This document shows, in pieces, positions 3,285 to 64,000 of a DNA stretch of 64,000 bases. Position numbers and translations under genes: made by a program. Under the pieces are notes generated by a model that did not search any database, was not told where the DNA came from, and was given only the letters and a program-made list of their open reading frames with translations. This stretch comes from Prorocentrum cordatum (Eukaryota): positions 682,001 to 746,000 of the forward strand of contig CAUYUJ010000002.1 in the NCBI GenBank assembly GCA_963575745.1, in the 5' to 3' direction. Position 1 is the stretch's first letter. Every line of letters begins with the position of its first letter.

Positions 3285-3898
3285 TAACCGCATGCCGATG
3301 ATAATAAAGGGACCCCCCCCTTCAGTGTTTAGAGTTGATTATCGTCGCCCTATACAATATTCAAATTGGGCGGCGAGCGCTGAGGCCGAACTTCATTATC
3401 ACCTCGAAACGCTATGTTAAGATAGCAACATCAAGCGATGTTGATATAGCAACATCAAGCGAAGCGATCACACTTTTTCAGGATGTGTCAAGCGAAACCA
3501 ATAATTTTGGGAGGCAGACTCAAACGAAACGAGCAATGTTATTATTATTATTATACTTTCCTCTTCTTCTTTTATATTTCTATCTGTCCTCACGCTCGCC
3601 TGAACTTTTTTTTATCCCTGGGGTTGATTATCCATGGAAAATGAAACACATGAGCTACATGAGCTACCCTACACGAGCACTTACAAAAAAACAATTGTCA
3701 TGAGAGATAAGCCATTGTTGAGGATATTTCTATGAAAACTAAACGCCAAGGATGTCTCAAAACGTGCTCGGCTTGGTCTCCTCTTGATCATCTCTTACTT
3801 CGAGATTATGCTGAGGTCTGCTGGGCTACTTTTATTATCTCCCCCTGAACCCCGAACTTTATTATCCCCTAGTGTTTATTCTCACGGGCATGAGGTTA
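3285..3898. mobile_element. MITE-like element with imperfect TIRs, TA-flanked (Tc1/mariner-type)
   Basis: TAACCGCATGCCGATGATAATAAA (3285-3308) is an imperfect inverted repeat of TTTATTCTCACGGGCATGAGGTTA (3875-3898). TA at both ends; AT-rich non-coding interior. Confidence 0.65.
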
Positions 3899-4544
3899 AG
3901 CGGCAATCGTATATTACACCTAAGCAAATATGGGGTCAATGGAAAGGCCATATTGTTTGACAATTGCTTTTCAGATTGGCTGTCTATGCGCTGCAAAACG
4001 AGGGTGCCTGAACAATGCACTTAAAGCTTCGTCTGGGGGGGGGGAGGGAGGCGGGAGAGGAGGGGGCGGAAGGGGCGGGAGGGGACGAGGACAAGACGCC
4101 ATCGCTAGCTTGGCCTGCTCCCAGACAACCGGCGCCCACGTCAGACAAAGTCACCCCCGCGCTCGAACGCCAACCGGTCGCAAAGGCACCGGCGAGCCCG
4201 GTGTCAGAACAGCAGCTCGTAGTGGAGACTGGTCTGGCTGGGAAGCGATCCGCCCGTAGACCACCAGTTGCCGCATCAATACTATAATGCTCAGTCGGTG
4301 CTGACGGGCTTGCCGCCGAACGTCGGCATTGCTCGGACGTGTGCATTTCTGTTCGGCGAGGACCATCGAGGAGCATCCTAGATCATCTGGCCCAAAATGC
4401 ACGCACGAAACCAAACACAGCACAGGGAAGTGACGTCCGAGCGATGGGAAGGACTGGGGGGTGAAGAAAAGGACCTTCAATTGGCCCCTGTAGGGCCCCT
4501 GCTGGCTCCAAGACCCTTTCCTTCACACTCTACTTCGGTCACCC

Positions 4545-12000: not shown

Positions 12001-13352
12001 AGCTTGCTGCTGGCGGTAGTGCTGGCGCTCCCTGACGTCGCGTTCCAGCTGATGAGCACGCAGCTCATTCTGGCCCTTCAGCTCTGCAGTGTGGTGTACT
12101 ACCTGCCGTGGCGCGTGCCTGGATCCAACACCCTCGATGCCACGTTCACGGTCGGCGTGGTGGTGGCGTTGGCATGTGCTTCCTTCTATGTAGACGCGCA
12201 CCCAGGTTGATGTCCTGGCTTGGATCTCCATCGTGTCGGTGGCTATCATGGTGTGCTCGACGCCCATCATCGGCGCAGTGGTGCTCTACCGTGAGCTGAC
12301 ACTCAGAGGCAACAAACCGTTCAAGTTCTTCATTTGTCACGACGTGGCTGGCGCCGGTGCCTATGCGCGTCTGCTCAAGATGCACATGGAGAAGAGGGCT
12401 GCCAGGGTAGGCATCGACAATGCTTGCGCTGGCGCCAGTCTCGACACCATCATGGACCAGGTCGGCACGCAGACTGAACGTTTGATCGTTTTGGCGTCGA
12501 AAAGCTTGCTCCAGAGGCACAGCTCCATGAACATGATCATGGCCGCGGAGCGCAAGCAGGTACAGGTGGCGAAGGTGACAATGCCCGAGTACACCGATCC
12601 AGAGGAGGAGTTCATCAATTCGTACGAGACAGACTTCAGCGACTCGTCGGTGCTCGCCAATGGCGGCTTCACAGTTTCGAACGTCAAGGATGCCCTGCGC
12701 TGGTTTCGTGGCCTCCAGGGAATCCCTGTGAGCCGGCAGCTGACCAGCACCTCGCTCGAGGAGATCTGCAACGAGCTGATTGGGAAGGCTGCGCCGCCAG
12801 CGAGCGAGGCTGGTGGCGATCCGCCCCCCAGACATCGCCACTGTGATCGTGCACGACAGCAAGAATTTGGAGGCCACCGCCGCTGCCATGGTCCTGGAGC
12901 GCATGTTGGAGCCGTCCTTCAGGGCTGGCAAGTCGCCGAGGGTGCTGTCCGCTGGCCAGCCTGTGCCCTCCTCGGCCAAGCAGGTCATCCTCCTCTGCGC
13001 CGACGGCATGCTCGAGCAGGAGGCCCCACTTCGTACAATTACGTCGGCGTCCAAGCTTGGCGCGACTTCCTTGCCCATGCTGGCTGGGGACGGCTTCCGC
13101 TTCCCGCCCCTCGACTTCGCCCAGAACAACGAGAAGATCCTCGAGCGGGAGGAGATGGATCTTGTGCTGGCAGCCTTCAAGCCCGTCTCAGTGAGCTTCC
13201 CCGCTGCGTTCGCCACGGGCCAGGTGCTCCGCGTCAACTCCGACGGGATTGCCGCGCGCTTGCTTCACGAGGAATGGACCAAGAGCCTCATTGAGTCGAG
13301 CATGACCAGCGAGAATCAAGTGCCTGACCTTGCAATCATCTCAAGCAGATAA
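9016..13352 (+). pseudogene. Intronless receptor-like gene: signal peptide, periplasmic-binding/Venus-flytrap (class C GPCR/ANF-receptor-like) domain, Cys-rich (GCC2/ephrin-receptor-like) repeats, multi-TM region and C-terminal TIR-like domain(s); disrupted
   Basis: ORF pieces 9016..9798, 9918..11801, 11719..12210, 12233.. and 12780..13352 join into one protein. Motifs: LLPGYRL, PIVSALSSNPGLSDRSKYPNFWRT (Venus-flytrap); CEAGTY...CETGRFS...CPRGSF (Cys repeats); several hydrophobic helices; FKFFICH...AYARLLK...LIVLAS (TIR-like). In-frame TAG at 9796-9798 and frameshifts near 9950 (T6 run), 11740, 12210 and 12780. Confidence 0.8.
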
Positions 13353-13790: not shown

Positions 13791-14399
13791 CGATTGATGA
13801 CGACACCGTGGAGGCCGCATGCAGGACATGCTGGCCCACGGTCTGCCCGAGACCTCCTTTGCAGTCGCGAGCCTACTCCCCTTTCTGAGGCCGCGTGGTT
13901 CGGTAGGACATGCTGTCCACGGTCTGCGCGAGGCTGCCTATGGCAGTCGCGAGCCTACTCCCTTCTTTGAGGAGCCTTGTGCGCCTGCTCCTTCGGCACA
14001 AACAAAAGCTCGCTTCATGCCAAGCCAGAGGGGACCAAGTGCAGATGCAGCTGGCAACATTCCAAGAGCTTGGCTTTCATGCGGAGCGTTTTTGTCTCCT
14101 CATCGCAGTGGCCCTGTGCTTTTTGCGATGCCAGGTCTCTGCAGGAGGCAATTCTTCACGCTTCGCGTACCCCCACCAGCCCATCTCAAAATAGCAACTC
14201 TTGCGAAGCATGCCGACAGTCGTGTTTTTCAGGCGTGTTTCCGCCTGCCCCCGCATATCTCCCCTGTTCCTTCTTCCTCCCGCCTCCTTGTACATCCTCC
14301 TTGTGGTGGGAGCGGGAGAAGGACGAGGCGGAGGAGGAGGGAGAGAAAGCGGTGGGAGGCAAGAGGGATTTAGCGGAGACGACGACCACAGCGATGATT

Positions 14400-14505
14400 C
14401 TAACAACGACGACGCACCCGACGACGACGACGATATCGACCGCGACGACGACGACGACCACAACCGCGACGACGACGACGACGACGTCGACGACGACGAC
14501 GACGA

Positions 14506-14562
<57 letters not shown>
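14400..14562. repeat. (GAC)n trinucleotide tract
   Basis: Direct reading. Confidence 0.95.
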
Positions 14563-14563
<1 letters not shown>

Positions 14564-14569
14564 TGGTGG

Positions 14570-17035
14570 GAGTCGTTGGGGCCCGTCGTGGGGTGAGTCG
14601 TTCGGCCCCATCGTCCTTGTGTGAGTCCTTCGGGCCCCTCTTCCTGGTGTGAGTCGTTCGGGCTCCTCGTGGTGTGAGTCGTTCGGGCCCCTCGTCCTGG
14701 TGTGAGCCGTTCGGGCTCCTCGTGGTTTGAGTCGTTCGGGCCCCTCGTCCTGGTGTGAGTCGTTCGGGACCTTCTTCCTGGTGTCAGTCGTTCGGGCTCT
14801 TCGTCGTGGTTTGAGTCGTTCGGGCTCTTCGTCCTGGCGTGAGTCGGTCGGGCTTCTCGTAGTGTGAGTTGTTCGGGCCCTTCGTCCTGGTGTGAGTCGT
14901 TCGGGCTCCTCGTCCTGATGTGAGTCGTTCGGGCTCCTCGTGGTGTGAGTCGTTCGGGCCGCTCGTCCAGGTGTGATTCGTTCGGGCCCCTCCTTGTGTG
15001 TGAGTCGTTCGGGCCCCTCGTGGTGTGAAAAGTTCGGGCCCATCGTCCTGGTGTGAGTCGTTCGGGCCCCTCCTTGTGTGTGAGTCGTTCGGGTCCCTCC
15101 TTGTGTGTGAGTCGTTCGGGCTCCTCGTGGTGTGAGTCGTTCGGGCCCCTCGTCCTGGTGTGAGTCGTTCGGGCCCCTCCTTGTGTGTGAGTCGTTCGGG
15201 CTCCTCGTGGTGTGAGTCGTTCGGGCCCCTCGTCCTGGTGTGAGTCGTTCGGGCCCCTCCTTGTGTGTGAGTCGTTCGGGCTCCTCGTGGTGTGAGTCGT
15301 TCGGGCCTCTCGTCCTGGTGTGAGTCGTTCGGGCCCCTCCTTGTGTGTGAGTCGTTCGGGCTCCTCGTGGTGTGAGTCGTTCGGGCCCCTCGTCCTGGTG
15401 TGAGTCGTTCGGGCCCCTCCTTGTGTGTGAGTCGTTCGGGCTCCTCGTGGTGTGAGTCGTTCGGGCCCTCGTCCTGGTGTGAGTCGTTCGGGCTCCTCGT
15501 GAGTCGTTCGGGCCCCTCGTCCTGGTGTGAGTCGTTCGGGTTCTTCCTTGAGTGTGAGTCGTTCGGGCTCCTCGTGGTGTGAGTCGTTCGGGCCCCTCGT
15601 CCTCGTGTGAGTCGAACTCTCCTCCTTGTGTGTGAGTCGTTCGGGCTCTTCGTGGTGTGAGTCGTTCGGGCTCTTCGTCCTGGTGTGAGTCGTTCGGGCT
15701 TCTCGTGGTGTGAGTTGTTCGGGCCCCTCGTCCTGGTGTGAGTCGTTCGGGCCCCTCCTCCTGGTGTGACTCGTTCGGGCTCCTCGTGGTGTGAGTCGTT
15801 CGGGGCCCTCGTCGTGGTGTGAGTCGTTCGGGCTCCTCGTGGTGTGAGTCGTTCGGGCGCCTCGTCCTGGTGTGAGTCGTTCGGGCCCCTCCTTTGGTGT
15901 GAGTCGTTCGGGCTCTCGTGGTGTGAGTCGTTCGGGCTCCCTCGTCCTGGTGTGAGTCGTTCGGGCCCCTCCGTTCGGGCTCCTCTCCGTTCGGGTGTGT
16001 GAGTCGTTCGGGCTCTTCGTGGTGTGAGTCGTTCGGGCCTTCGTCCTGGTGTGAGTCGTTCGGGCTTCTCGTGGTGTGAGTTGTTCGGGCCCCTCGTCCT
16101 GGTGTGAGTCGTTCGGGCCCCTCCTCCTGGTGTGAGTCGTTCGGGCTCCTCGTGGTGTGAGTCGTTCGGGGCCCTCGTCCTGGTGTGAGTCGTTCGGGCT
16201 CCTCGTGGTGTGAGTCGTTCGGGCCCTCGTCCTGGTGTGAGTCGTTCGGGTCCTGGTGTGAGTCGTTCGGGCTCCTCGTGGTGTGAGTCGTTCGGGCCCC
16301 TCGTCCTGGTGTGAGTCGTTCGGCCCCTCCTTGTGTGTGAGTCGTGGTGTGAGTCGTTCGGGCCGTTCGTCTCGTGGTGTGAGTCGTTCGGGCCCCTTCC
16401 TTGTGTGTGAGTCGTTCGGGCTCCTCGTGGTGTGAGTCGTTCGGGCCCTCGTCTGGTGTGAGTCGTTCCCCCTCCTTGTGTGTGAGTCGTTCGGGCTCCT
16501 CGTGGTGTGAGTCGTTCGGGCCCCTCGTCCTGGTGTGAGTCGTTCGGGCCCCTCCTTGTGTGTGAGTCGTTCGGGCTCCTCGTGGTGTGAGTCGTTCGGG
16601 CCCCTCGTCCTGGTGTGAGTCGTTCGGGCCCCTCCTTGTGTGTGAGGCGTTCGGGCTCCTCGTGGTGTGAGTCGTTCGGGCCCCTCGTCCTGGTGTGAGT
16701 CCGTCGGGCCCCTCCTTGTGTGTGAGTCGTTCGGGCTCCTCGTGGTGTGAGTCGTTCGGGGCCCTCGTCCTGGGGTGAGTCGTTCGGGCCCCTCCTTGTG
16801 TGTGAGTCGTTCGGGCTCCTCGTGGTGTGAGTCGTTCGGGCCCCTCGTCCTGGTGTGAGTTTTCGGGCGCCTCCTTGCGTGTGAGTCGTTCGGGCTCCTC
16901 GTGGTGTGAATCGTTCGGGCCACTCGTCCTGGTGTGAGTCGCTCGGGCCACTCCTTGTGTGTGAGGCGTTCGGGCTCCTCGTGGTGTGAGTCGTTGGGGC
17001 CCCTCGTCCTGGGGTGAGTCGTTCGGGCTCCTCGT
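14570..17035. repeat. Minisatellite with conserved core TGTGAGTCGTTCGGG and three alternating linkers (80-bp higher-order trimer)
   Basis: The core is followed cyclically by CTCCTCGTGG, CCCCTCGTCCTGG and CCCCTCCTTGTG (25+28+27 bp). Accounts for the >1000-aa minus-strand ORFs. Confidence 0.95.
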
Positions 17036-17650
17036 GGGGCCTCTTGGGGGCCTCTTGGAGGCTCCTGGGGCCTCTTGGGGGCCTCTTGGGGGCGTCTTGG
17101 GGGCCTCTTGGGGGCCTCTTGGGGCGTCTTGGGGCCTCTTGGGGGCCTCTTGGGGGCCTCTTGGGGGCCTCTTGGGGCCTCTTGGGGGCCTCTTGGGGGC
17201 CTCTTGGAGGCCTCTTGGAGGCCTCTTGGGAGCCTCCTGGGGGCCTCTTGGGGCCAGCTTGGGGCCTCTTGCGACCTCCTCAGAAGCGCGAATGAGCGCT
17301 GCCCCCTGAGAAGGACAAAATGAGCCCAAAACCTTCGTAAAATCAATGATTTTGCCATGAAGGAAGAGGAGCGCTGAAACCGTAGTAAAATCTATGATTT
17401 TGGCTTCACAGAAGAGGAGAGGTTTTTTTCTCTGGCCCCCCGTCGGGGCCAGAATCCTCGTGAGGGGTGTCGTTTTTTAGCCCTCCCAGGAGTCGAAAAA
17501 GACCCCTCCAACGACCCGCGGAACCCCCTCTCCAGGTCCAGGGGGAGGGGGTAGGGGGAGGGGTAAACCCCTCCCCGAAGGGGAAGAAGGGGGGGTGAGA
17601 ACAGAGCGTGCTCTCTAAACCACTCACGCCCAAAGGGCTGGTGGGATTTA
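17036..17650. repeat. GGGGCCTCTT-rich dispersed repeat family member
   Basis: Tandem GGGGCCTCTT units, ending in CGCCCAAAGGGCTGGTGGGATT. Related blocks at 1-130, 21480-22112 (same end motif), 50300-50950 and 58490-58990. The reverse complement (CCCAAGA/CCAAGAGG) fills the 29-31 kb elements. Confidence 0.8.
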
Positions 17651-42130: not shown

Positions 42131-42868
42131 CTTTCTGTAGTATCGTATTATTATTCTCCCCGTCCTCCTTATCCTCATCTTCCTCCTCATCCTCCTCATC
42201 CTCTTCCTCTGCAAGTGCTCAATCTGAGTGTTACTCTCTCTTCCCCGGCTACGCGCTGAAAGTGTGGCGCCCCCTTCCGTGAATCATGCTTATCCATCTG
42301 AACGTTTTGTTTAATGACAGACGTTATTTCAGGATCGGCTTGTTTTTCCCGTCGTCCCGAACGGCCCTCTCGCCCCAGCGCGGCCCCCTCTTCTGGATCG
42401 GTGTCCTTCCTCATCTTTGTCTGCCCGTTCCTTTCTCCTCCTCCGCCTTCCCCCAGTTATCCTGCCCCTCCCTCTTCCGTTCCTGGTCCTGCTGCTGCTG
42501 TCCTTCGTCCTCCTCCTCCTCTTTTCCGCATTTCCGTTTCCCTCCTGCTACTCCGCTTGCTCATCCGCCACCTCCTCATCCTGCTCCTCTTCCCTTTCCT
42601 CCTCCTCCTCCTCCTCCTCGTCCTCCTCTTCCTCCAATGCACACAGTTCCCATTTGTGTTGGTGTTGGTTCCAGGCAGGCTCTGACACCCCCCGGCCCGC
42701 CCCTCAGCGCAATATGAAGCGATGGGTGGGTGGTAGGGTGTCAAATACGGCGCAAGCGCACATGGCTTGTCCTCCTCATGTCTCCTCCCGCCTCCTGTTC
42801 CTTCTCCTCATCATCACCGATCCTCGACGATCGGCTATGTTTGTATTTGCGCTCTCCTCCTCCTTTGG

Positions 42869-42898
42869 AGCCATTTTGGCTCAAGCCATTTGATTGAG
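42869..42898 (+). other. Tandem relict DinoSL upstream of RuBisCO
   Basis: AGCCATTTTGGCTCAAG (42869-42885) is a perfect 17-nt match to the 3' part of DinoSL. It is followed at once by the decayed CCATTTGATTGAG (42886-42898). Confidence 0.92.
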
Positions 42899-42957
42899 AC
42901 CGTTTTTGCAAAACCAGCTTGTCGACTGTGCGAGCTCGGCTCAGCCCTACTAGCACA

Positions 42958-45900
42958 ATGGCCCAGCGCGCCTCGCTTGGGGCTGCCGCTGGCCTGGCGG
43001 CCGTCGCTTGCTTGAAACACGGCCAGTCCTTCGTGTCCTCGCAGGGTGCGCCCCGCGCCGCCGTCGAGGAGACGCTGCAGGCTTCCCCTGCAGATGCGGC
43101 CCCCGCCCTCCGCGGCGCCGCGCACGCCCAGCAGCCAAACCCCACGGGGGGAGCGGCGGCCCTGGCAGCGCCGGCGGCCGCGGCCGCCCTCGCCGCGGCG
43201 GTCGGGTCCAAGCGCCGTGGTCGCGCCAGCAAGTTGGCGGCCGGCCAGCTCTCGTCCGTTGTTCCAGTCCGCTCGCGCGCCAGCGTGGCCCGCCGGGCCC
43301 TGGACCAGTCGAGCCGCTACGCGGACCTCTCGTTGACGGAGGAGGACTTGATCAAGAACGGCCAGCACGTGTTGGTGGCCTACATCATGAAGCCCAAGGC
43401 GGGCTATGATTACCTGGCCACCGCGGCGCACTTCGCGGCGGAGTCCTCCACTGGCACGAACGTGAACGTGTGCACTACCGATGACTTCACCAAAACTGTG
43501 GACGCGCTCGTGTATTACATCGATCCTGAGAACGAGGAGATGAAGATCGCCTACCCGACGGCCTTGTTCGACCGCAACATCACCGACGGTCGCGCCATGA
43601 TGTGTTCGGTGCTGACCCTGAGCATCGGAAACAACCAGGGAATGGGCGACGTCGACTACGGCAAGATCTACGATATCTATTTCCCGCCGCAGTACCTGCG
43701 CCTGTTCGACGGGCCGTCGTGCTGTGTGATCGACATGTGGCGCATCCTGGGCCGCGGCACGGTCGGCGGTGGCTTGGTGGTCGGCACCATTATCAAGCCC
43801 AAGCTCGGCTTGCAGCCGAAGCCCTTCGGCCAGGCCTGCTATGGCTTCTGGCAGGGCGGCGATTTCATCAAGAACGACGAGCCGCAGGGCAACCAGACGT
43901 TCTGCCAAATGAACGAATGCATCCCCGAAGTCGTGAAGGCCATGCGTGCGGCCCAGGAGGAAACGGGCCAGGGGAAGCTGTTCTCCGCCAACATCACGGC
44001 GGATGATCCGAACGAGATGATCGCGCGTGCCAAGTACATTCTGAACCAGATGGGCCCGATGGCGGAGAATTGCGCATTCTTGGTCGACGGCTACGTGGCT
44101 GGTGGCACTGCGGTGACCGTTGCGCGCCGCAACTTCCCGAAGCAGTTCCTGCACTATCACCGCGCCGGCCACGGCGCAGTGACCAGCCCGCAGACTCAGC
44201 GTGGGTACACCGCCTTCGTGCACACCAAGCTGTCGCGCGTCATCGGTGCCAGCGGCATCCACACGGGCACGATGAGCTTTGGCAAGATGGAGGGCGACGC
44301 TTCGGACAAGAACATCGGCTTCATGTTGCAGGACGACGTCGCCGACGGCCCCTACTACCGCCAGGAGTGGGAGGGCATGAAGCAGACCACCCCGATCATC
44401 TCGGGCGGCATGAACGCCTTGCGGCTGCCTGCGTTCTTCGAGAACCTGGGCCACTCGAACGTCATCCTGACGGCTGGCGGTGGGGCTTTCGGGCACAAGG
44501 ACGGGCCGAAGCAGGGTGCGATCTCGTGCGCCCAGGGCGAGGAGTCGTGGAAGTTGTGGAAGGCAGGCACCTACGGCGACGTTAGCCTGTCGGACGGCGT
44601 CGTCGAGTACGCGAAGACGCACGAGGAGCTCAAGGGCGCGTTCCTGACGTTCCAGAAGGATGCGGACCAGATCTACCCTGGCTGGAAGGAGAAGCTCGGC
44701 TACACGGGCGAGTCCTCCGTCCAGGCGGCCAGCTTCAACTGGCAGAAGAAGGATTTGGCCGCGGCGTTCGTTGGCGCCAGCAATGCTCGCAAAGCGAGCT
44801 CCGTGGCCCGCCGGGCCCTGGACCAGTCGAGCCGCTACGCGGACCTCTCGTTGACGGAGGAGGACTTGATCAAGAACGGCCAGCACGTGTTGGTGGCCTA
44901 CATCATGAAGCCCAAGGCGGGCTACGACTACTTGGCCACCGCGGCGCATTTCGCGGCGGAGTCCTCCACTGGCACGAACGTGAACGTGTGCACTACCGAT
45001 GACTTCACCAAAACTGTGGACGCGCTCGTGTATTACATCGATCCTGAGAACGAGGAGATGAAGATCGCCTACCCGACGGCCTTGTTCGACCGCAACATCA
45101 CCGACGGTCGCGCCATGATGTGTTCGGTGCTGACCCTGAGCATCGGAAACAACCAGGGAATGGGCGACGTCGACTACGGCAAGATCTACGATATCTATTT
45201 CCCGCCGCAGTACCTGCGCCTGTTCGACGGGCCGTCGTGCTGCGTGATCGACATGTGGCGCATCCTGGGCCGCGGCACGGTCGGCGGTGGCTTGGTGGTC
45301 GGCACCATTATCAAGCCCAAGCTCGGCTTGCAGCCGAAGCCCTTCGGCCAGGCCTGCTATGGCTTCTGGCAGGGCGGCGATTTCATCAAGAACGACGAGC
45401 CGCAGGGCAACCAGACGTTCTGCCAAATGAACGAATGCATCCCCGAAGTCGTGAAGGCCATGCGTGCGGCCCAGGAGGAAACGGGCCAGGGGAAGCTGTT
45501 CTCCGCCAACATCACGGCGGATGATCCGAACGAGATGATCGCGCGTGCCAAGTACATTCTGAACCAGATGGGCCCGATGGCGGAGAATTGCGCATTCTTG
45601 GTCGACGGCTACGTGGCTGGTGGCACTGCGGTGACCGTTGCGCGCCGCAACTTCCCGAAGCAGTTCCTGCACTATCACCGCGCCGGCCACGGCGCAGTGA
45701 CCAGCCCGCAGACTCAGCGTGGGTACACCGCCTTCGTGCACACCAAGCTGTCGCGCGTCATCGGTGCCAGCGGCATCCACACGGGCACGATGAGCTTTGG
45801 CAAGATGGAGGGCGACGCTTCGGACAAGAACATCGGCTTCATGTTGCAGGACGACGTCGCCGACGGCCCCTACTACCGCCAGGAGTGGGAGGGCATGAAG

Positions 45901-48900
45901 CAGACCACCCCGATCATCTCGGGTGGCATGAACGCCTTGCGGCTGCCTGCGTTCTTCGAGAACCTGGGCCACTCGAACGTCATCCTGACGGCCGGCGGTG
46001 GGGCTTTCGGGCACAAGGACGGGCCGAAGCAGGGCGCGATCTCGTGCGCCCAGGGCGAGGAGTCGTGGAAGTTGTGGAAGGCAGGCACCTACGGCGACGT
46101 GAGCCTGTCGGACGGCGTCGTCGAGTACGCGAAGACGCACGAGGAGCTCAAGGGCGCGTTCTTGACGTTCCAGAAGGATGCGGACCAGATCTACCCGGGC
46201 TGGAAGGAGAAGCTCGGCTACACGGGCGAGTCCTCCGTCCAGGCGGCCAGCTTCAACTGGCAGAAGAAGGATTTGGCCGCGGCGTTCGTTGGCGCCAGCA
46301 CGCTCGCAAAGCGAGCTCCGTGGCCCGCCGGGCCCTGGACCAGTCGAGCCGCTACGCGGACCTCTCGCTGACGGAGGAGGACCTGATCAAGAACGGCCAG
46401 CACGTGCTGGTGGCCTACATCATGAAGCCCAAGGCGGGCTACGACTACCTGGCCACCGCGGCGCACTTCGCGGCGGAGTCCTCCACTGGCACGAACGTGA
46501 ACGTGTGCACCACCGATGACTTCACCAAAACTGTGGACGCGCTCGTGTATTACATCGATCCTGAGAACGAGGAGATGAAGATCGCCTACCCGACGGCCTT
46601 GTTCGACCGCAACATCACCGACGGTCGCGCCATGATGTGTTCGGTGCTGACCCTGAGCATCGGGAATAACCAGGGCATGGGTGACGTCGACTACGGCAAG
46701 ATCTATGACATCTATTTCCCGCCGCAGTACCTGCGCCTGTTCGACGGGCCGTCGTGCTGCGTGATCGACATGTGGCGCATCCTGGGCCGCGGCACGGTCG
46801 GCGGTGGCCTGGTGGTCGGCACCATTATCAAGCCCAAGCTCGGCTTGCAGCCGAAGCCCTTCGGCCAGGCGTGCTATGGCTTCTGGCAGGGCGGCGACTT
46901 CATCAAGAACGACGAGCCGCAGGGCAACCAGACGTTCTGCCAAATGAACGAATGCATCCCCGAAGTCGTGAAGGCCATGCGCGCGGCCCAGGAGGAAACG
47001 GGCCAGGGCAAGCTGTTCTCCGCCAACATCACGGCGGATGACCCGAACGAGATGATCGCGCGTGCCAAGTACATTCTGAACCAGATGGGCCCGATGGCGG
47101 AGAATTGCGCATTCTTGGTCGACGGCTACGTGGCTGGTGGCACTGCGGTGACCGTTGCGCGCCGCAACTTCCCGAAGCAGTTCCTGCACTATCACCGCGC
47201 CGGCCACGGCGCAGTGACCAGCCCGCAGACTCAGCGTGGGTACACCGCCTTCGTGCACACCAAGCTGTCGCGCGTCATCGGTGCCAGCGGCATCCACACG
47301 GGCACGATGAGCTTTGGCAAGATGGAGGGCGACGCTTCGGACAAGAACATCGGCTTCATGTTGCAGGACGACGTCGCCGACGGCCCCTACTACCGCCAGG
47401 AGTGGGAGGGCATGAAGCAGACCACCCCGATCATCTCGGGCGGCATGAACGCCTTGCGGCTGCCTGCGTTCTTCGAGAACCTGGGCCACTCGAACGTCAT
47501 CCTGACGGCTGGCGGTGGGGCTTTCGGGCACAAGGACGGGCCGAAGCAGGGTGCGATCTCGTGCGCCCAGGGCGAGGAGTCGTGGAAGTTGTGGAAGGCA
47601 GGCACCTACGGCGACGTTAGCCTGTCGGACGGCGTCGTCGAGTACGCGAAGACGCACGAGGAGCTCAAGGGCGCGTTCTGACGTTCCAGAAGGATGCGGA
47701 CCAGATCTACCCTGGCTGGAAGGAGAAGCTCGGCTACACGGGCGAGTCCTCCGTCCAGGCGGCCAGCTTCAACTGGCAGAAGAAGGATTTGGCCGCGGCG
47801 TTCGTTGGCGCCAGCAATGCTCGCAAAGCGAGCTCCGTGGCCCGCCGGGCCCTGGACCAGTCGAGCCGCTACGCGGACCTCTCGTTGACGGAGGAGGACT
47901 TGATCAAGAACGGCCAGCACGTGTTGGTGGCCTACATCATGAAGCCCAAGGCGGGCTACGACTACTTGGCCACCGCGGCGCACTTCGCGGCGGAGTCCTC
48001 CACTGGCACGAACGTGAACGTGTGCACTACCGATGACTTCACCAAAACTGTGGACGCGCTCGTGTATTACATCGATCCTGAGAACGAGGAGATGAAGATC
48101 GCCTACCCGACGGCCTTGTTCGACCGCAACATTACCGACGGTCGCGCCATGATGTGTTCGGTGCTGACCCTGAGCATCGGGAACAACCAGGGCATGGGTG
48201 ACGTCGACTACGGCAAGATCTATGACATCTATTTCCCGCCGCAGTACCTGCGCCTGTTCGACGGGCCGTCGTGCTGCGTGATCGACATGTGGCGCATCCT
48301 GGGCCGCGGCACGGTCGGCGGTGGCTTGGTGGTCGGCACCATTATCAAGCCCAAGCTCGGCTTGCAGCCGAAGCCCTTCGGCCAGGCCTGCTATGGCTTC
48401 TGGCAGGGCGGCGATTTCATCAAGAACGACGAGCCGCAGGGCAACCAGACGTTCTGCCAAATGAACGAATGCATCCCCGAAGTCGTGAAGGCCATGCGTG
48501 CGGCCCAGGAGGAAACGGGCCAGGGGAAGCTGTTCTCCGCCAACATCACGGCGGATGATCCGAACGAGATGATCGCGCGTGCCAAGTACATTCTGAACCA
48601 GATGGGCCCGATGGCGGAGAATTGCGCATTCTTGGTCGACGGCTACGTGGCTGGTGGCACTGCGGTGACCGTTGCGCGCCGCAACTTCCCGAAGCAGTTC
48701 CTGCACTATCACCGCGCCGGCCACGGCGCAGTGACCAGCCCGCAGACTCAGCGTGGGTACACCGCCTTCGTGCACACCAAGCTGTCGCGCGTCATCGGTG
48801 CCAGCGGCATCCACACGGGCACGATGAGCTTTGGCAAGATGGAGGGCGACGCTTCGGACAAGAACATCGGCTTCATGTTGCAGGACGACGTCGCCGACGG

Positions 48901-49315
48901 CCCCTACTACCGCCAGGAGTGGGAGGGCATGAAGCAGACCACCCCGATCATCTCGGGCGGCATGAACGCCTTGCGGCTGCCTGCGTTCTTCGAGAACCTG
49001 GGCCACTCGAACGTCATCCTGACGGCTGGCGGTGGGGCTTTCGGGCACAAGGACGGGCCGAAGCAGGGTGCGATCTCGTGCGCCCAGGGCGAGGAGTCGT
49101 GGAAGTTGTGGAAGGCAGGCACCTACGGCGACGTTAGCCTGTCGGACGGCGTCGTCGAGTACGCGAAGACGCACGAGGAGCTCAAGGGCGCCTTCCTGAC
49201 GTTCCAGAAGGATGCGGACCAGATCTACCCTGGCTGGAAGGAGAAGCTCGGCTACACGGGCGAGTCCTCCGTCCAGGCGGCCAGCTTCAATTGGCAGAAG
49301 AAGGAGTTGAGCTGA
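42958..49315 (+). CDS. rbcL: Nucleus-encoded form II RuBisCO polyprotein: plastid-targeting presequence plus 4 tandem RuBisCO units
   Basis: ATG at 42958. A ~113-aa presequence (hydrophobic signal, SFV motif, Ala-rich hydrophobic stretch, KRRGR). Units starting ALDQSSRY at 43297, 44815, 46332 and 47849. Form II catalytic motif GGDFIKNDE in each, plus [10 protein letters not shown] and [12 protein letters not shown]. Single-base deletions near 46300 and 47678 break the frame. Stop at 49313-49315; no introns. Confidence 0.97.
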
Positions 49316-52529: not shown

Positions 52530-53780
52530 CACACCCCTCACGCGCTTCGTGGCCCCATCCCCACCGCAGGCCCACGTGGCCGCGGCCGCATGCGTCCGCC
52601 ACATCCAGTACAGCGCTTCGTAGCCCCATTGGAGCTCCCCCGAAGGCCCCACTGGCCGCGGCCGCATGCGCCCGCGCCGCCCAGTACAGCGCTCCGTGGC
52701 CCCATTGGAGCTCCACCGAAGGCCCCAGTGGCTGCGGCAGCATGCGTCCGCGCCACCCAGTACACCGCTTCGTGGCCTCATAGGGAGCTCGACCGAAGGC
52801 CCCCCTGGCCGCGGCCGCATGCATTGGCGCCACCCTGTACAGCGCGTCGTGGCCCTAAAGGAAGCTCCACCGAAGGCCCCACTGGCCGCGGCCGCATGCG
52901 CCCGCGCCACCCAGTACACCGCTTCGTGGCCCCATACGGAGCCCCACAAAAAAACAATGGCTGCGGCCGCATGCGCCTGCCCCACCCAGTACTGCATTTC
53001 GTGGCCCCATCGGGAGCCCCACCGAAGGCCCCAGCCCAGCACAGCCATTCGTGGCCCCAACGGAAGCTCCACCGAACGTTCCAGGAGCCGCGGCAGCATA
53101 CGCCCGCGACACCCAGTACAGCGTTTCGTTGCCTCATGGGGAGCTTAACCGAGAGCCCCAGTGGCCGTGGCCGCATGCGCCCGCGCCATCCAGTACATGT
53201 TCGTGCCCCCCCCCCCCAAGGAAGTCCACCGACGGCCCCAGACGCATCCCCGCCACCCAGCGCAGCGCTTCGTAGCCCCATAGGAGCTCCACCGAAGGCT
53301 TCAGTAAGCGCGGCAGCATTCGTCTGCGCCACCCTGTGCAGCGCTTCGTGGCCCCATAGGAAGCTCCACCGAAGGCCCCACTGGCCGCGGCCGCATGCGC
53401 CCGCGCCACCCAGTACAGCGCTGCGTGGCCCCACACGGAGCCCCACCAAGAACCACCCAGTACAGCACTTCGTGGCCCCACACGGAGCCCCACAACGAGC
53501 CACCCAGTACAGCGTGTCGTGGCCCCCCCAAGGGGGTTCCACCGAAGGCCCCGGTGTCAGCGGCCGCACGTGTGTGCCCCACCCAATGCAGCGCTTCGTA
53601 GCCAGCTCCACCGAAGGCCCCAGTGGCCGTGGCCGCAAGCGCCCCCCCTGCCGAGAACAGTGCTTCGTGGCCCCACAGGGCGCTCAGCGCTCCACAGAAG
53701 ACCGCAGTGGCCGCGGCCGCATGCGTTTCCCTCACCCATTACAGGACACCTCTCACGCATTTCGTGGCCTCATAGGGCGT
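52530..53780 (-). repeat. Satellite of the same ~90-bp family as 600-2815, opposite orientation, variant subfamily
   Basis: TTCGTGGCCCCATAGG(G/A)AGCTCCACCGAAGGCCCCA is the reverse complement of the 600-2815 consensus. The other half of the unit differs (GGCCGCGGCCGCATGCG...CCAGTACA). Confidence 0.9.
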
Positions 53781-55503
53781 GTCTTCGAAAGCGGTATCAC
53801 GACGCGGTGGTCACAGCTGCATCTGGTTGGGTCTTTCGCCAGTGAAGTTTTATATTCCCAGGTTCCAGTATACTTTAGGGGCTTTCCTACTTGAAGAGTC
53901 GAGGTGCTGTTTGTTTCCTTCCTAAGGGAGCGGGATGAAGCCCAATGTACTTTCGACGCCTTCCTGCTTCATGTCTCTACCCACTTCTTGCGAACGATGG
54001 GTACGGCAGGTTGGAATCGCCCCGACGCAGCGACCTCGCCGCGGGCGTTCAAGGTTCAACGCCGCCAACAACCCTGGATGCCGGTGGGGGCCTGAAATCC
54101 TGTCATTCTGGAGAACCGCAAAACAAGCGCCATCTTGGACGCAAATTATGCCATTCTGCGCGTTGTGGGCGCCCTCGTCATTCGCTTCCCCTCAGGCCCC
54201 GACCTGTTCGAAATCCACAGATTCTGAAATTATGTGGATCAGGCCTGCGTCGTGCACGCGTCGTAAATCCACAGAATTTCTGTTAATCTGTAGATTGGGA
54301 CTCCGTCGTGGATCCACAGAATGTCCTTCAATGTGTGGATGATAGCCGCCTCCCTGGCGATTCGGATCCCGTGGCCCCGTTTCACATACTCGGATGAATT
54401 TGCAATCTGTAGATTTTCAGTGCGTCGGGTACACGTCCCGAATCAACAGAATATGACAATCTGTGGATTTGATGCGGCCCCCAGAGGGACCCGAGACGAC
54501 GAGACATTCAGCGCCATAATCAACACATTTCACAAATCTGCAGCTTTCGCCTGCTCCGGGTTGAGCGGCTTGGCCCCTCTCCAGATTCAGGGGGGGTCGG
54601 CACCCAACAACAGCCCAGAAACGGCCGATATCAGGCAATCGGGCGGTCGAAAAGGAGCGGATGGTTCAGGGCTGCACGATCCGCCCGGTGTGGGAAACCA
54701 GCGCAAGGGTCATCACGACACGAACCTGCCGCACAGTCCAGATGTTGAAGCAAGGGCCATTTGGGGCTCGTTGTTGTCATGCATTGTTCTGCCGATCGGC
54801 GCGGGCCGTGCCCCCATCCCCATCCCCTCCGCTTCCTCCTGCTCCTCCTCATCCTCCTCCTCCTCCTCCTCCACCTCCTCCTCCTCCCCCTCCCCTCCTC
54901 CACTCCTCCTCCTCCTCCTCCTCCTCCTCCTCCTCCTTCCTCCTCCTCCTCCTCCTCCTCTTCCTCCTTCTCTTCTTCCCTCCTTTCCTCCCCCTCCCCC
55001 CCCACCCCCATGGAGTAGATCTTGGCTGTTTGGGGCGCCTGTTTTGAGCAAGTGGAGCCTCCCCCATAGGACGCACTGTTACAAACAGTCTCACTAAGCA
55101 GAGGTCCGGAGCCAGGACCGCCCCCCCTCGCTCCCCCTTCTGCACAATGTCGAAACGCCGAATAAGAAAACGCTCACGATCTGCTTGTCGGGCCGCACGT
55201 GAGAGGGGGCAGGCCTTCTCAGACACCGGCGGGGCTTCTCAGAAGCCCCTCGCGCCCTCCGAGACACCGTCCGTGGTTCGGGAGATGGCTCACAAAGCTC
55301 TTCCAGAGGCGCGGTGGTTTCTGAGAAGTCTCGCCGCCGTCTGAGACGGCCTGCCCCCACCTGACTTCCCCCCTGGGCTCGCCGCCGAGTATCCACTTCC
55401 CCTGAGATCCGACGGCGCAAAAGAATGCAGCACCGTGTGAACAGTCACGACCAGAGCCCAGCACCCGGCGGAGCGCGACACTCCCAAACTTGCCCCCCTC
55501 GAC

Positions 55504-60031: not shown

Positions 60032-60417
60032 TCCTACTGTGGAAGAAGCAGGTCTGCATGAACAAACTTTTGGAGCTCCGCGCAGATTTCTCGGATCGGT
60101 GCGCGCGGAGCGCGCCTGGGGCGGCGCCTGAGGCGCCGCTTGAGGGGCCCAGCGCCGACCCAAGAGACTTGCGCGGAGCTCCGAAAGCTTCTGTGCTGGT
60201 TGTAACTCTTGCTCTCTGTACTAAACGTCATGCCGGAGGCCAGGCGCCTCTGCGAGCAGGTGGCCGAGGGCCTCCCGGAGTGCATCAGGGCTTGCGGGAG
60301 CATGGAGGAGCGCCTCGAGCAGCTCGGCCAGGCCGAGGCCAGCCGCGGCGGGGGCCCAGCTGCGGTGGTCGGGGCGCGCGCAACGGGGCTCAGCGCCAAC
60401 GGGGTTCCGCCCAGGAA

Positions 60418-60760
60418 GAGGGGGAGGAGGAGGAGGAGGAGGAGGAGGAGGAGGAGGAGGAGGAGGCGGAGGAGGAGGAGGAGGAGGAGGAGGAGGAGAG
60501 GGAGGAGGAGGAGGAGGAGGAGGAGGGAGGGAGGAGGAGGAGGAGGAGGAGGAGGAGGAGGAGGGGAGGAGGAGGAGAGGAGGAGGAGGAGGAGGAGGAG
60601 GAGGAGGAGGAGGAGGAGGGGGAGGAGGAGGAGGAGGAGGGGGAGGAGGAGGAGGAGGAGGAGGAGGAGGAGGAGGAGGAGGAGGAGGAGGAGGAGGGGG
60701 AGGGGAGGAGGGGGAGGACGAAGGAGGAGGAGCAGGAGGAGGAGGAGGAGGAGGAGGAGG
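60418..60760. repeat. (GAG)n trinucleotide tract
   Basis: Direct reading. Confidence 0.95.
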
Positions 60761-61724
60761 ATCCCTAAGTCCGGATTTGGGCTCAGCTGGGCTGGAGAGC
60801 CGCTCGCGCCCCGGGAGGTGGCCTCGCGTGTGACTTTGGGAAGTTCCCCCCGCCCTCGAAAAAATCAGCGCATTTTTCCCATGAGTTGGCCGAGACGGGT
60901 TTGCGCTGAGCCGAGTTGGTCCACGCCCCAGGCGGAGGCGTGCCTCTGCGGCAGCGTCTTTCACGCCGACTGCATCTTCTGTCGGAGGTTCAGGGGCAAC
61001 ATCAGGGGGGGATCGACTCAGGGGGGGTCCGATACTCGAGGTTTTCGGACGTTTTCGTGGGTCCTCGGCGCCTTTCTGGCCTCGGGCTGCCTTCCAGCGG
61101 CTGCGCCTCGCCGAGAGCAGTCGAGGGGTGCCCAGATCGTTCCGAACTCGCCGAGAGCGTTCAAAGGGATGCCCAGATCGCTCCGAGCGGCCGCAGGAGG
61201 CCCGAGCTGCGACTCGAAAACCACCGGGCGCTGGGCCCAGCTTGGCATCGCTCGGACGTGTGCATTTTTCCTTCAGCGAGGACCATCGAGGAGCATCCTT
61301 GATCATTTGGCGAAAAAGCCACGCACGAAACCGAAAAAAAACACAGGGAATGAACGTCCGAGCGTTGGCCAGCCAGGAGGGAGCGCATCGACCCCCGATC
61401 GCCCAATCCTCGCCGACTGGGTCTTGACAGCCCCCACCGCCCAGGAGCGGGCGGACTCGCGATCGAGGGCATGTCGCCGACCTCTCGGCGACGTCGCCGA
61501 TCTATCGGCGATGTCTCGCCGAGTCGAGCTCGGTGCTTCCTCCCCTGAGCCGGTCCCGATCGGACGAAAGTGGGGGAGGGGGAAAGGGGGGCGGGCGAAG
61601 TCTGCCGCGCGCAGCTAGTTTCGGCCTCGCCGCCGGGCGCTTCCCGCTAGGGAAGACCAGTTGCGAGAGCTGATTCGCTGATCCCCCCTTTAGTTCCTCA
61701 CCACCCCTTTCTAAGAGAAGCGAG

Positions 61725-62498
61725 GGATGACGATGAGGATGAGGATGATGATGTCGATGATGAGGATGAGGATGAGGATGAGGATGAGGATGAGGATGAA
61801 GATGAGGATGATGATGGTTAGCATGAGGAAAAGGGCGAAGAGGAGGATCAGGATGAGGATCACGGTGGGCACAAGGTTGAGGATGAGGACGAGGACGAAG
61901 ACGATAATGAGCACGAGGATGAGGATGAGGATGCAGATGGGGATGGGCATGAGGATGAGGATGAGGATGAGGGGGATTGTGCCGATGACAATGCCGATGA
62001 CGATTACGATGGCGTCCACGATGATGATGATTGTAATAGGAAGACTAGTAGAAATAAGAATAGTAATAACAATAATAAGACTGATGATGATTATGATGAT
62101 GATGGTGGTGATGATGATGACGTTGACGATGATACTGATGATGTTTCTGATGCTGTTGCTGATGCCCATGCTGCTGATGCTGATGCTGATCCTGCTGATG
62201 CTGCCGCTGCTGCTGCTGTTATTGCTGCTGCTGATGATGATGACGATGACAATGACGATGCTGCTGCTGCTGATGATGGTGATGATGATGATAAATGTGA
62301 TGACTATGATGATGTTGATGATCATGATGATGGATATGATGATGCTGATGATGATGCTGATGATGATGATGATGCTGATGATGGTGGTGATGATGCTGGT
62401 GATGATGAATATGATGATCCTGATGATTATGATTATGATGATGATGCTGATGATGGTGGTGATGATGCTGATGATGATGATGATGCTGATGATGATGC

Positions 62499-62539
<41 letters not shown>

Positions 62540-62546
62540 CTGATGC

Positions 62547-62612
<66 letters not shown>
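61725..62612. repeat. (GAT)n-based degenerate trinucleotide tract
   Basis: Direct reading. Produces the poly-Met/poly-Ile artefact ORFs. Confidence 0.95.
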
Positions 62613-62614
<2 letters not shown>

Positions 62615-62816
62615 TTGGGGCCGCCCATCAAGAGGCCGTTGTTTGTCGTCAGGTACTGTTCGGATATGTTACAATTCAGAGGGGTACCCCAGCAGGTATT
62701 CCCAGGGCCAGGCTGAAGACAGATAATGAGTTCTTGCACCGTCGCCATATTTTGGCTCAAGAAATATATCCCCTCCCATCCATCATCAGAGTTTGGGGGA
62801 GGAGGATTGCTTTGCA
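62613..62816 (+). mobile_element. Putative 5' LTR (204 bp, TG...CA) of a copia-type retrotransposon
   Basis: Starts TGTTGGGG exactly where the (GAT)n tract ends. Ends TTGCA immediately before a PBS-like TGG. The 3' LTR lies outside the window, so the LTR cannot be confirmed here. Confidence 0.7.
62738..62761 (+). other. Near full-length DinoSL-like sequence inside the putative LTR
   Basis: ACCGTCGCCATATTTTGGCTCAAG versus ACCGTAGCCATTTTGGCTCAAG: one substitution (A>C) and a 2-nt insertion. Confidence 0.85.
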
Positions 62817-62830
62817 TGGTAGCGCGGAGC
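62817..62830 (+). promoter_or_regulatory. Primer-binding site, probably for initiator tRNA-Met
   Basis: TGGTAGCGCGGAGC lies directly after the LTR-terminal CA and resembles the yeast Ty1 PBS (TGGTAGCGCC). It implies a tRNA with A73 and an A1:U72 pair, typical of eukaryotic initiator tRNA. Confidence 0.7.
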
Positions 62831-62891
62831 ATGTTCTGATCCACGGCATTTCTGCTGAGTGACTCCAGGGAGTCACGGGTCAGCTTCCGCC

Positions 62892-64000
62892 ATGGAGCAG
62901 CAGGTGCAGCTGCAAGCGCAGCAGATTGCAGAGCTGAGAGATTTATTGCAAAGGCAGTCGCAGGAGCTCCAGAGGATGGCCGCGGCCCAGCCAGCAGCAC
63001 CAGCGCAAGCAGCAGCACCAGTGCCCCCAGCAGTGCCACGACGCATGGAAGGTATCTTGGACAGCAAGATAGTAGGGAAGGTCAAGCAGTTTGACGGCCA
63101 ACGTTCTTCATGGAAGACCTTTGAGTTTCACTGGAAGGCCTACTTGGTGGCCAACGATTTTCGTTTCAGAAGGATGTTCCAGGCCATCGAAGATGAACCT
63201 GATGTGGCAATGCTGGTGAACGACGTAGGCAGTGTGAATAATCCAGATTTCGAGCCTCTCTCCAGCCAGCTGTACTTTATGTTGGTGCTGGCGATGCCAG
63301 AGGACAGCACGGGCGAGAGCATCATCTCCAATACACCAGAGGGAGAGGGCGCCCTGGCATGGAAGAAGCTCTTGAACGAGTACTCTCCCAACGAGCCTGG
63401 GGACATAGTGGGACAGTTCAGGAAGATTCTAGGTACGGTGTTCCCCAAGGATGCGGACATTGTCACGGAGATCATGAAGCTGGACAAGGAGATCGCCCGC
63501 TACGAGAAAGCGGGTGGCGAGACGGTGTCGGCGAACGTCTCGCGTGGCATCCTCCTGGGGGCTCTCTCAGAGGAACCTGACCTCCAGAAGCACTTGTTCC
63601 GCAACCTTCGTAGTTTGCCCACCTACGCCGATATGCGAGCGGAGGTGGTGAATGCCCTTGCAGCCCAGAGGAGCGTGAACGACGACGCCATGGACATCGG
63701 TGCGCTCAAGGGCGGCAAGGCGAAGGGCGGCAAGGCGAAGGGCGGCAAGGACGGCAAGAGCAAGAAGGGCAAGGGCTACGACTCCCAGTCCTCCGAGAAG
63801 TGGCGCAGTTACTGTGAGAAGCCGAACCACGTCCGCTCTGAGTGCCGCAAGAAGGCTGCTGATGATCGCCGACGGGATGCAGAGGAGGCCGCGACGAAAG
63901 CCAAGCATGACAAGAAGGATCGCCAGAAGCAGCGGAGAGCTCAGGCTAAGGCTGGAGCCTTGTCTGCTGGCACAGCGCCGTCACTACCGACTACAGGGAC
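62892..64000 (+). CDS. Copia-type Gag (start of gag-pol), open to the window end
   Basis: Manual translation from ATG 62892, absent from the ORF track because it has no stop in the window: MEQQVQLQAQQIAELR...GKVKQFDGQRSSWKTFEFHWKAYL...QLYFMLVL...EGALAWKKLLNEY...MDIGALKGGK...WRSYCEKPNHVRSEC. The CX2CX4HX4C knuckle has its first Cys codon as CGC. Confidence 0.85.
   Translation, partial: MEQQVQLQAQQIAELRDLLQRQSQELQRMAAAQPAAPAQAAAPVPPAVPRRMEGILDSKIVGKVKQFDGQRSSWKTFEFHWKAYLVANDFRFRRMFQAIEDEPDVAMLVNDVGSVNNPDFEPLSSQLYFMLVLAMPEDSTGESIISNTPEGEGALAWKKLLNEYSPNEPGDIVGQFRKILGTVFPKDADIVTEIMKLDKEIARYEKAGGETVSANVSRGILLGALSEEPDLQKHLFRNLRSLPTYADMRAEVVNALAAQRSVNDDAMDIGALKGGKAKGGKAKGGKDGKSKKGKGYDSQSSEKWRSYCEKPNHVRSECRKKAADDRRRDAEEAATKAKHDKKDRQKQRRAQAKAGALSAGTAPSLPTTG

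Follow-up and report, generated by a model that had tools for sequence, protein, structure and literature searches.

A long terminal repeat (LTR) retrotransposon of the Ty1/copia type, lying at the end of a 64,000-nt stretch of Prorocentrum cordatum DNA (contig CAUYUJ010000002.1, positions 682,001 to 746,000 of the forward strand), carries a near-complete copy of the dinoflagellate spliced leader (SL; DinoSL) inside its LTR. The whole stretch is called the window here, and positions are counted from its first letter. Sequence comparison established the position and orientation of this SL-derived block, its recurrence across element families and hosts, its presence in both LTRs and the inheritance of its variants. 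We consider the chances about even that the block marks the border between the U3 and R regions of the LTR, and thus the 5' end of the element's genomic RNA, the SL having been copied in by reverse transcription and inherited as DNA since. Other dinoflagellate copia elements have a comparable block at this place, which may link their replication to trans-splicing.

A spliced leader block inside the LTR

The block, ACCGTCGCCATATTTTGGCTCAAG, occupies positions 62738-62761 on the plus strand and is separated by exactly 55 nt from the primer binding site (PBS) TGGTAGCGCGGAGC at 62817. It covers the full-length footprint of the 22-nt DinoSL DCCGTAGCCATTTTGGCTCAAG, with 21 of the 22 positions matching. 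An A is replaced by C at SL position 6, two nucleotides (AT) are inserted, and the genomic variant contains ..CGTCGCCATATTTTGG... The A that is replaced belongs to the internal AG of the SL (AG>CG). The original prediction had described such a near-complete DinoSL with its 5' ACCGT, the AG>CG change and the insertion, 55 nt upstream of the PBS, and direct reading of the letters found it present. The local alignment score of the block to DinoSL was reached by none of 5000 mononucleotide shuffles of the LTR. When 1020 tiles of 250 nt were scored on both strands, a score of at least 33 was observed at just two places, namely the block and a relic SL at 42865-42885. The SL match of the block is beyond chance.

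The extent of the LTR was read from other copies of the element. Logan contigs of four runs (X1, X2, X5 and X6) were aligned to it, and 32 of the 260 pieces were listed. Among the matches listed, two X1 contigs and one X6 contig lose their homology exactly at 62657. Upstream of this point the three contigs carry related purine-rich stretches, ..CATGCCTAAGAACAAG and ..CATGCCTGAGGAGAGG, which look like the polypurine tract (PPT) at the 3' end of the element interior. Because contig homology stops at 62657 behind a purine tract, the 5' LTR is taken as 62657-62816 on the plus strand. It is 160 bp long (TGTTCGG...TTTGCA), begins with TG, and ends in GCTTTGCA with a CA directly before the PBS. A 204-bp TG...CA segment beginning at 62613 had been proposed for it, and that boundary proved to be 44 nt off. 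The 44 nt in question (62613-62656, no strand assigned) are host flank between a (GAT)n microsatellite and the element, and no listed contig from another copy aligns upstream of 62657. With a PPT upstream of the LTR, the contigs read PPT-LTR-PBS-gag, as expected if the assembler collapses both LTRs of a multi-copy element. The 192 pieces aligned from X1 range from below 90% to above 99% identity, which indicates many copies in the family. Within the window, neither blastn nor tblastn found a second copy of the element.

The 81 nt of the LTR on the 5' side of the block (62657-62737, plus strand) are common to other copies, with contigs starting at 62657, 62660 and 62671 among the matches listed. 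We assign them tentatively to U3. Because of these 81 shared nucleotides, the block is not at the 5' end of a retro-copied unit, and the earlier statement that the SL motif lies inside the LTR was upheld. The 55 nt from the block to the LTR end (62762-62816, plus strand) would hold the rest of R plus U5, and a hairpin predicted for them is not significant. The block is thus located in the middle of the LTR, where the U3/R border could be, in agreement with the original prediction that the SL sits about where that border should fall. We regard this structural description of the element and its block as secure.

Inheritance of the block within the family

Three contigs span the block and could be read through it. 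The X2 contig (record 9) covers 62671-62851 with 2 letters different from the window copy, the X5 contig (record 17) covers 62716-62866 with 1 letter different, and the X6 contig (record 29) covers 62718-62873 with 2 letters different and 1 gap. All of these differences fall at 62724, 62739 or 62852. Since every difference lies elsewhere, the X2, X5 and X6 contigs share both the CG and the AT insertion of the window copy. X1 probably carries the variant block too, as one of its contigs (record 2) has a single unplaceable difference; another (record 1) is 12% divergent, and its block state is unreadable. Most contigs have T at 62739, so that the family majority reads ATCG.. at the 5' end of the block versus ACCG.. 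in the window copy. Judged from these copies, the block is a family feature and not a one-off, and the expectation that family copies keep the motif, including AG>CG and the AT insertion, held for X2, X5 and X6 and probably for X1. The four runs may sample one cosmopolitan species, and the recurrence demonstrates inheritance within the family, not selection.

The element belongs to the Ty1/copia type

The PBS (62817-62830, plus strand) adjoins the LTR end and is putatively of the initiator-Met-tRNA type. It equals TGGTAGCGGAGC plus an extra GC. The 12-mer TGGTAGCGGAGC stands directly after the LTR in the Symbiodinium elements of supplementary files 7, 8 and 10 described below, and one divergent X1 contig without 2 nt at 62822 restores it. 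No tRNA gene was found within the window. The gag open reading frame (ORF) starts with ATG at 62892 and remains open to the window end at 64000 on the plus strand (369 aa read). Both PBS and open gag frame were located where they had been predicted. The product contains a Lys/Gly-rich stretch followed by a degenerate zinc knuckle at about 63807-63854.

Pfam gave no family match for the gag ORF itself, just a sub-threshold C2H2. In a full HMMER search, 929 proteins matched the Gag query at E<=1e-3. Alignments with E values from 1e-90 to 1e-54 were obtained to proteins carrying Retrotran_gag_2 and zf-CCHC, and the domains of the long relatives are RVT_2, Retrotran_gag_2, zf-CCHC and a C-terminal SAP. 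The nearest relative is a 1703-aa RVT_2 protein, named Prorocentrum cordatum at NCBI, with 98% identity over 211 aa; the same species name stands on 8 of the 11 matches of that search. RVT_2 was found in P0151 (the protein with the 98% identical Gag part), P0153, P0099 and others, mostly below the Pfam cut-off. The polyprotein alignment of the relatives also contains an H..H..C..C motif N-terminal of the reverse transcriptase region, which we take to be the integrase zinc finger. The pol of the window copy lies outside the window, and the order of RVT_2 and integrase was read from the relatives. Because the relatives carry copia-type Gag, zinc knuckle and RVT_2, the element is of the Ty1/copia type, and by the Gag and pol comparisons it is an ordinary member. 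The earlier call of an LTR retrotransposon was thereby supported and given a type.

Several further observations concern this lineage. A SAP (DNA-binding) domain ends its polyproteins (P0153, P0007, P0129 and positions 3-281 of L003, a metagenome relative described below), which is an unusual C-terminal addition to pol. The Gag zinc knuckle of the window copy is without the first Cys of the C-x2-C-x4-H-x4-C found in relatives, and its PBS shows a GC duplication at 62817-62830 relative to TGGTAGCGGAGC. Given these changes in knuckle and PBS, the window copy or its subfamily may be impaired despite the open frame. No read-through of the SL was seen in the N-termini of 159 relatives. The viral_contigs set gave no match when searched with the Gag alignment or with the pol alignment A3.

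SL blocks in related elements

Metagenome contigs were searched with the Gag alignment, a search blind to the SL motif. Three loci were obtained, two of them without upstream sequence. The third, L003, is unbiased for the motif because it was found through Gag alone, and its Gag is about 50% identical to that of the window element. It begins with the C-terminus of pol including the SAP domain (3-281), which is followed by a purine tract, GAGGAGAGG, and by an LTR that starts with TGTAGAG... and ends with CA (376-543). Within this LTR lies an SL block, ACCGTAGCCATTTGGCTCAAG, at 469-489, which is the canonical SL minus one T of the T run. The block is 54 nt away from the CA at 543 and 56 nt away from the PBS TGGTAGCGGAACGCC, which starts at 546 and is preceded by TA. 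The gag of L003 runs from 686 and changes frame near 1164-1189, by a frameshift or an assembly error.

None of 5000 shuffles of the L003 LTR reached its SL score. In the pairwise alignment of the window and L003 LTRs, the SL block is the sole long conserved run, and the rest is unalignable. RNA folding from SL to PBS revealed no significant structure shared by the two (z = -2.2 for the window and +0.3 for L003). A pattern search with TTGGCTCAAG N{45,65} TGGTAGC was rejected as a source of further cases: it returned 95 stretches in viral_contigs and at least 120 in genome_contigs, which are chance matches. Among the matches listed, 216 in 218 loci, the 5' part of the SL was present within 3 edits in L003 alone.

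SmTCL1-4 are heat-activated Ty1/copia-like elements of Symbiodinium microadriaticum (Chen et al. 2018, PMC5776459). Their sequences were taken from the annotated supplementary files of that paper, in which file 9 is SmTCL3 according to the alignment file and file 10 is SmTCL4 from the file order alone. SL scores were counted by hand against the background of the window tiles, where an 11-mer match occurred only at true SLs, a 9-mer match in 2.8% of tiles and an 8-mer match in up to 8.6%. In SmTCL3 (LTRs at 3866-4044 and 12860-13038 of file 9), an exact 11-mer in ..ACCTTGAACCTTTGGCTCAAG ends at LTR position 124, 55 nt before the LTR end; the block keeps about 16 of the 22 SL positions by hand count and is identical on 4 scaffolds. 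The 118-bp LTR of file 8 carries ACCGACGATGGCTCAAG at positions 62-78, leaving 40 nt to the LTR end, after which comes the PBS TGGTAGCGGAGCA. The LTR end of the window element, TGCTTTGCA, is similar to that of the file 8 element, TGCTTTGGCA. In file 10 (LTR at 1762-2030, read from both LTRs), GTGTGGCTCAAG lies at about 87-97, with 172 nt left to the LTR end. In file 7 (LTR at 3430-3677), ACCGCGAGCCATAGGCAGCAAAACAAG lies at positions 92-118, with 130 nt left, and this pattern scores below the level of an 8-9-mer under tile scoring by hand. By the tile background rates, three of the six LTR matches are strong (window, L003, SmTCL3), one is moderate (file 8) and two are weak (files 7 and 10).

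In each of the six LTRs the block runs in sense orientation and begins 61-104 nt inside the repeat. In the annotated files, both LTRs of each of the four SmTCL elements carry that element's SL-like block. The same LTR also stands behind the 3' end of related elements in the PPT-LTR-PBS contigs and in L003; the 3' LTR and target-site duplication of the window copy itself lie past the end of the window. The expectation that the motif would be found in both LTRs was therefore borne out by these contigs and by the four Symbiodinium elements, in part only, as two of the Symbiodinium matches are weak.

The block as a candidate U3/R border

With a full-length SL footprint standing mid-LTR, and in both LTRs, the block would fall at the U3/R border if an SL-capped RNA was once copied to its end. 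LTR elements need R at both ends of their RNA for minus-strand transfer. In the proposed course of events, an SL-capped element RNA would have been reverse transcribed, and the minus-strand strong-stop cDNA would have copied the leader. Regeneration of the LTRs would then have put the SL copy into both of them. A genomic RNA whose 5' end lies at the block could explain why the block persists and recurs across lineages: its copy in the 3' LTR would offer a landing place for SL-ended strong-stop cDNA, and transcripts starting at the block would resemble host mRNAs. The spacing from block to LTR end is near-equal in three families (55 nt in the window, 54 nt in L003 and 55 nt in SmTCL3).

The comparison of copies showed that in the window family and in SmTCL3 the block is inherited as ordinary LTR DNA, mutations included, and is not renewed from the host SL in each cycle. 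Since it is not reset to the canonical SL, it is now passed on as DNA, either as an encoded RNA 5' end or as a part of U3. Several points weigh against placing the U3/R border at the block. The placement is drawn from sequence, from which the RNA 5' end and the poly(A) site, and hence R, are predictions. The inherited variants speak against the idea that trans-spliced RNA with full-length strong-stop cDNA is used constantly, and they are equally compatible with a U3 location of the block. Of the six LTR matches, those of files 7 and 10 are weak, and the distance from block to LTR end, 55, 54 and 55 nt in three families, is 40, 130 and 172 nt in the others. The sample is small, as the six LTRs include four from one species and one paper. 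In addition, the block begins with ATCG in most family contigs instead of ACCG (62739 C>T).

Other roles of the block were weighed on the same observations. The element may, as the original prediction suggested, encode its own leader, with the first base of the block as the transcription start and an SL-like RNA 5' end that serves translation, export or stability without trans-splicing. Such a leader fits the full-length footprint, from 5' ACCG to 3' CAAG, which is unlike the usual 5'-truncated relics of retrogenes (the window relic at 42869 starts at AG). It also fits the inheritance of variants in the window family and in SmTCL3, with its identical block on 4 scaffolds, as expected of a genome-encoded RNA end, and the absence of the internal AG acceptor from the window element, SmTCL3 and file 8; a functional effect of that loss found no support here. 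However, only about 16 of 22 SL positions remain in the recently active SmTCL3 and file 8 is without the SL middle, so a working mimic seemingly is not required, and the T at the second block position in most window-family contigs does not suit one either; we consider this role unlikely. Alternatively, the block could be a landing pad in current use, the genomic RNA receiving its SL by trans-splicing at the AG that ends the block. Strong-stop cDNA would then end in anti-SL and find its R homology for the first strand transfer in the SL copy of the 3' LTR. According to Song et al. (2017, PMC5585692), all dinoflagellate nuclear mRNAs are SL-capped; the block does end in AG, the SL of L003 is near-canonical with one T missing, as would be expected soon after a reset, and the spacing to the LTR end is almost equal in three families. 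Use of this kind would nevertheless reset the block in each cycle, yet CG and the AT insertion recur in the window family across runs and near-identical SmTCL3 copies share a diverged block. Strand transfer would have to occur regularly at an early point inside the SL, with no sign of that here, and current use as a landing pad appears quite unlikely. Just as doubtful is a core promoter in U3, in which the SL relic supplies a TTT(T/G) box and transcription starts about 25-35 nt downstream. For SL-tagged retrogenes, Song et al. (2017, PMC5585692) proposed the TTT(T/G) box to be the basal promoter, TTTTGG or TTTGG is retained in the window, L003 and SmTCL3, and inheritance of variants is compatible with a U3 position. 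On the other hand, the T run has been lost in files 7, 8 and 10 (GATGG, ATAGG and TGTGG) while other parts of the SL were kept, the SL ends are conserved at least as well as the T run, and R plus U5 would measure just about 20-30 nt.

The block might also have no role. Each family would then have gained an SL or a piece of host 5' untranslated region once, by aberrant strand transfer, and the block would be decaying. The degree of decay does differ among the blocks, and dinoflagellate genomes are rich in SL relics, with at least 151 stretches carrying the exact 16-mer GCCATTTTGGCTCAAG in viral_contigs, that is in IMG/VR bins alone. Roleless relics do not readily explain the same orientation and a start 61-104 nt into the LTR in 6 of 6 LTRs, the near-identical spacing in three families of different hosts, or the survival of the block between window and L003 while the rest of the LTR became unalignable. 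Moreover, by hand scoring, no more than 2.8% of background tiles reach the scores of 2 of the 4 SmTCL LTRs, and we find this explanation very unlikely. Retrotransposons that target SL genes exist in other SL-using organisms, and the block could in principle be no LTR feature at all: it could be a fragment of an SL RNA gene, the element could have inserted into an SL array, or a trans-spliced copia mRNA could have left a processed retrocopy. This has a negligible probability, given that 81 nt upstream of the block are common to copies and stand behind the element's own purine tract, so that the SL is not at the end of an inserted unit, and that the block occurs in both LTRs of four SmTCL elements. 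An SL RNA gene was also tried as a candidate and rejected. The block is directly followed by AAATAT instead of a GT donor, the window holds no other copy, and Rfam gave just chance C/D-box matches in the GAT repeat, although Rfam may have no dinoflagellate SL RNA model. With neither a GT donor behind it nor an Rfam match, the block does not qualify as an SL RNA gene.

Relation to SL-tagged retrogenes

Dinoflagellate genomes contain thousands of retrogenes with relic SLs, and an SL-derived block in copia LTRs is a concrete sequence link to them. Ty1/copia elements have been named as candidate makers of retrogenes in reviews, which, in the parts considered here, offer no direct evidence for it (PMC6050394, PMC5585692). 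The copia elements could use the host SL as the start of R, on a genomic RNA with an SL end that is either spliced on or encoded, with strong-stop cDNA landing on the SL of the 3' LTR and cDNA of SL-capped host mRNAs jumping, through the same 22 nt of homology, onto element RNA in the particle. We give this extension a low probability. If it were true, these copia elements would be the long-sought machine behind the thousands of SL-tagged dinoflagellate retrogenes. The block would also be an unusual example of a host RNA-processing tag that a retroelement has incorporated into its terminal repeat. In practice, screens for retrogenes by SL relics may pick up LTRs, and in cDNA libraries primed with DinoSL, element RNAs may be amplified that never underwent trans-splicing.

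The window itself contains one other SL relic scoring at the level of the block. It reads AGCCATTTTGGCTCAAG at 42869-42885, starts at AG and has no AT insertion, which shows the host leader to be canonical over its last 17 nt. The relic stands in front of a RuBisCO gene (relic at 42865-42885), and the SL alone (13 nt) is common to it and the LTR. The original prediction had regarded SL homology as a possible engine of the retrogenes in the window; since the sole other SL relic shares only the SL, that proposal found no support in the window. Copia gag or pol relatives were encoded in none of the 151 GCCATTTTGGCTCAAG loci (640 kb). Three "giant virus bins" behind such loci contained no relative of P0153 and no RVT_2, but control genomes were blank too, so this shows little.

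The surroundings of the relic and of the 16-mer loci have features of their own. Within 42865-49312, the relic SL TTGGAGCCATTTTGGCTCAAG is followed by a second, decayed relic, CCATTTGATTGAG. Directly behind the relics is a tandem form II RuBisCO polyprotein gene, in which RuBisCO_large N-terminal and catalytic domains repeat at a period of about 1518 nt. The 16-mer loci L219-L369 come from IMG/VR, many from "giant virus bins" (for example behind L229, L228 and L223), and L244 and L286 hold several SL copies at 50-nt spacing. Their SL matches come either from dinoflagellate DNA binned with giant viruses or from viruses with SL-tagged genes.

Other features of the window

Very long trinucleotide microsatellites flank the element: (AGG)n at 60413-60761, (GAT/TGA)n at 61725-62614 and (CCT)n at 54826-54997. 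They produce long spurious ORFs on both strands. The part nearest to the element, a long (GAT)n-type TGA/GAT repeat, covers 62082 to about 62614. A GC-rich tandem repeat at 52559-53447 has a 77-nt unit in about 6 plus 2.6 copies with roughly 81% matches. Further away, 9918-11798 contains an ORF with Ephrin_rec_like repeats, and several other long ORFs, such as 14080-17476 on the minus strand, had no match in the Pfam search.

Comparison with known systems

The SmTCL elements resemble the window element in their short LTRs (118-269 bp) with TG...CA ends and, by the authors' annotation, in their copia domain order; SmTCL3 also shares with it the distance of 55 nt between block and LTR end. They differ in host order, Suessiales versus a Prorocentrum-like host, their LTRs are unalignable by eye with that of the window element, and their blocks are more decayed. 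The main text of Chen et al. 2018 contains neither "spliced leader" nor "DinoSL" (0 occurrences), and the SL block is thus undescribed in that text. The literature searched, not including files 13-18 of the supplement of that paper, yielded no description of an SL inside an LTR; in the portion of an acoel genome paper covered, both terms are named separately, with no SL in an LTR. In the architecture read from their sequences, the SmTCL elements are the closest to the window element.

Relic spliced leaders of dinoflagellate retrogenes were reportedly described by Slamovits and Keeling in 2008. Like the block of the window element, a relic SL of a retrogene is a DNA copy of the 22-nt DinoSL that arises by reverse transcription of SL-capped RNA (Song et al. 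2017, PMC5585692). As treated there, however, the relic lies at the 5' end of the retrocopy and its first bases are usually missing, whereas the block is full length and internal to the LTR. The block also differs in its presence in both LTRs of a self-regenerated repeat and in its inheritance through retrotransposition.

Two other systems are related in part. The PBS of Ty1 of yeast begins with TGGTAGCG and is complementary to the 3' end of the initiator tRNA. The PBS of the window element, putatively of the initiator-tRNA type, begins with TGGTAGCG too. R of Ty1 is element-specific and set by the start and poly(A) sites of its LTR, while in the window element a tag of host RNA processing is the candidate for the start of R. 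SLACS, CZAR and CRE of trypanosomatids and NeSL-1 of nematodes are non-LTR retrotransposons that insert into SL RNA genes. They share with the window element the physical linkage of a retroelement to an SL sequence; in those elements the SL lies outside the element, whereas here it lies inside the LTR and is not an SL RNA gene.

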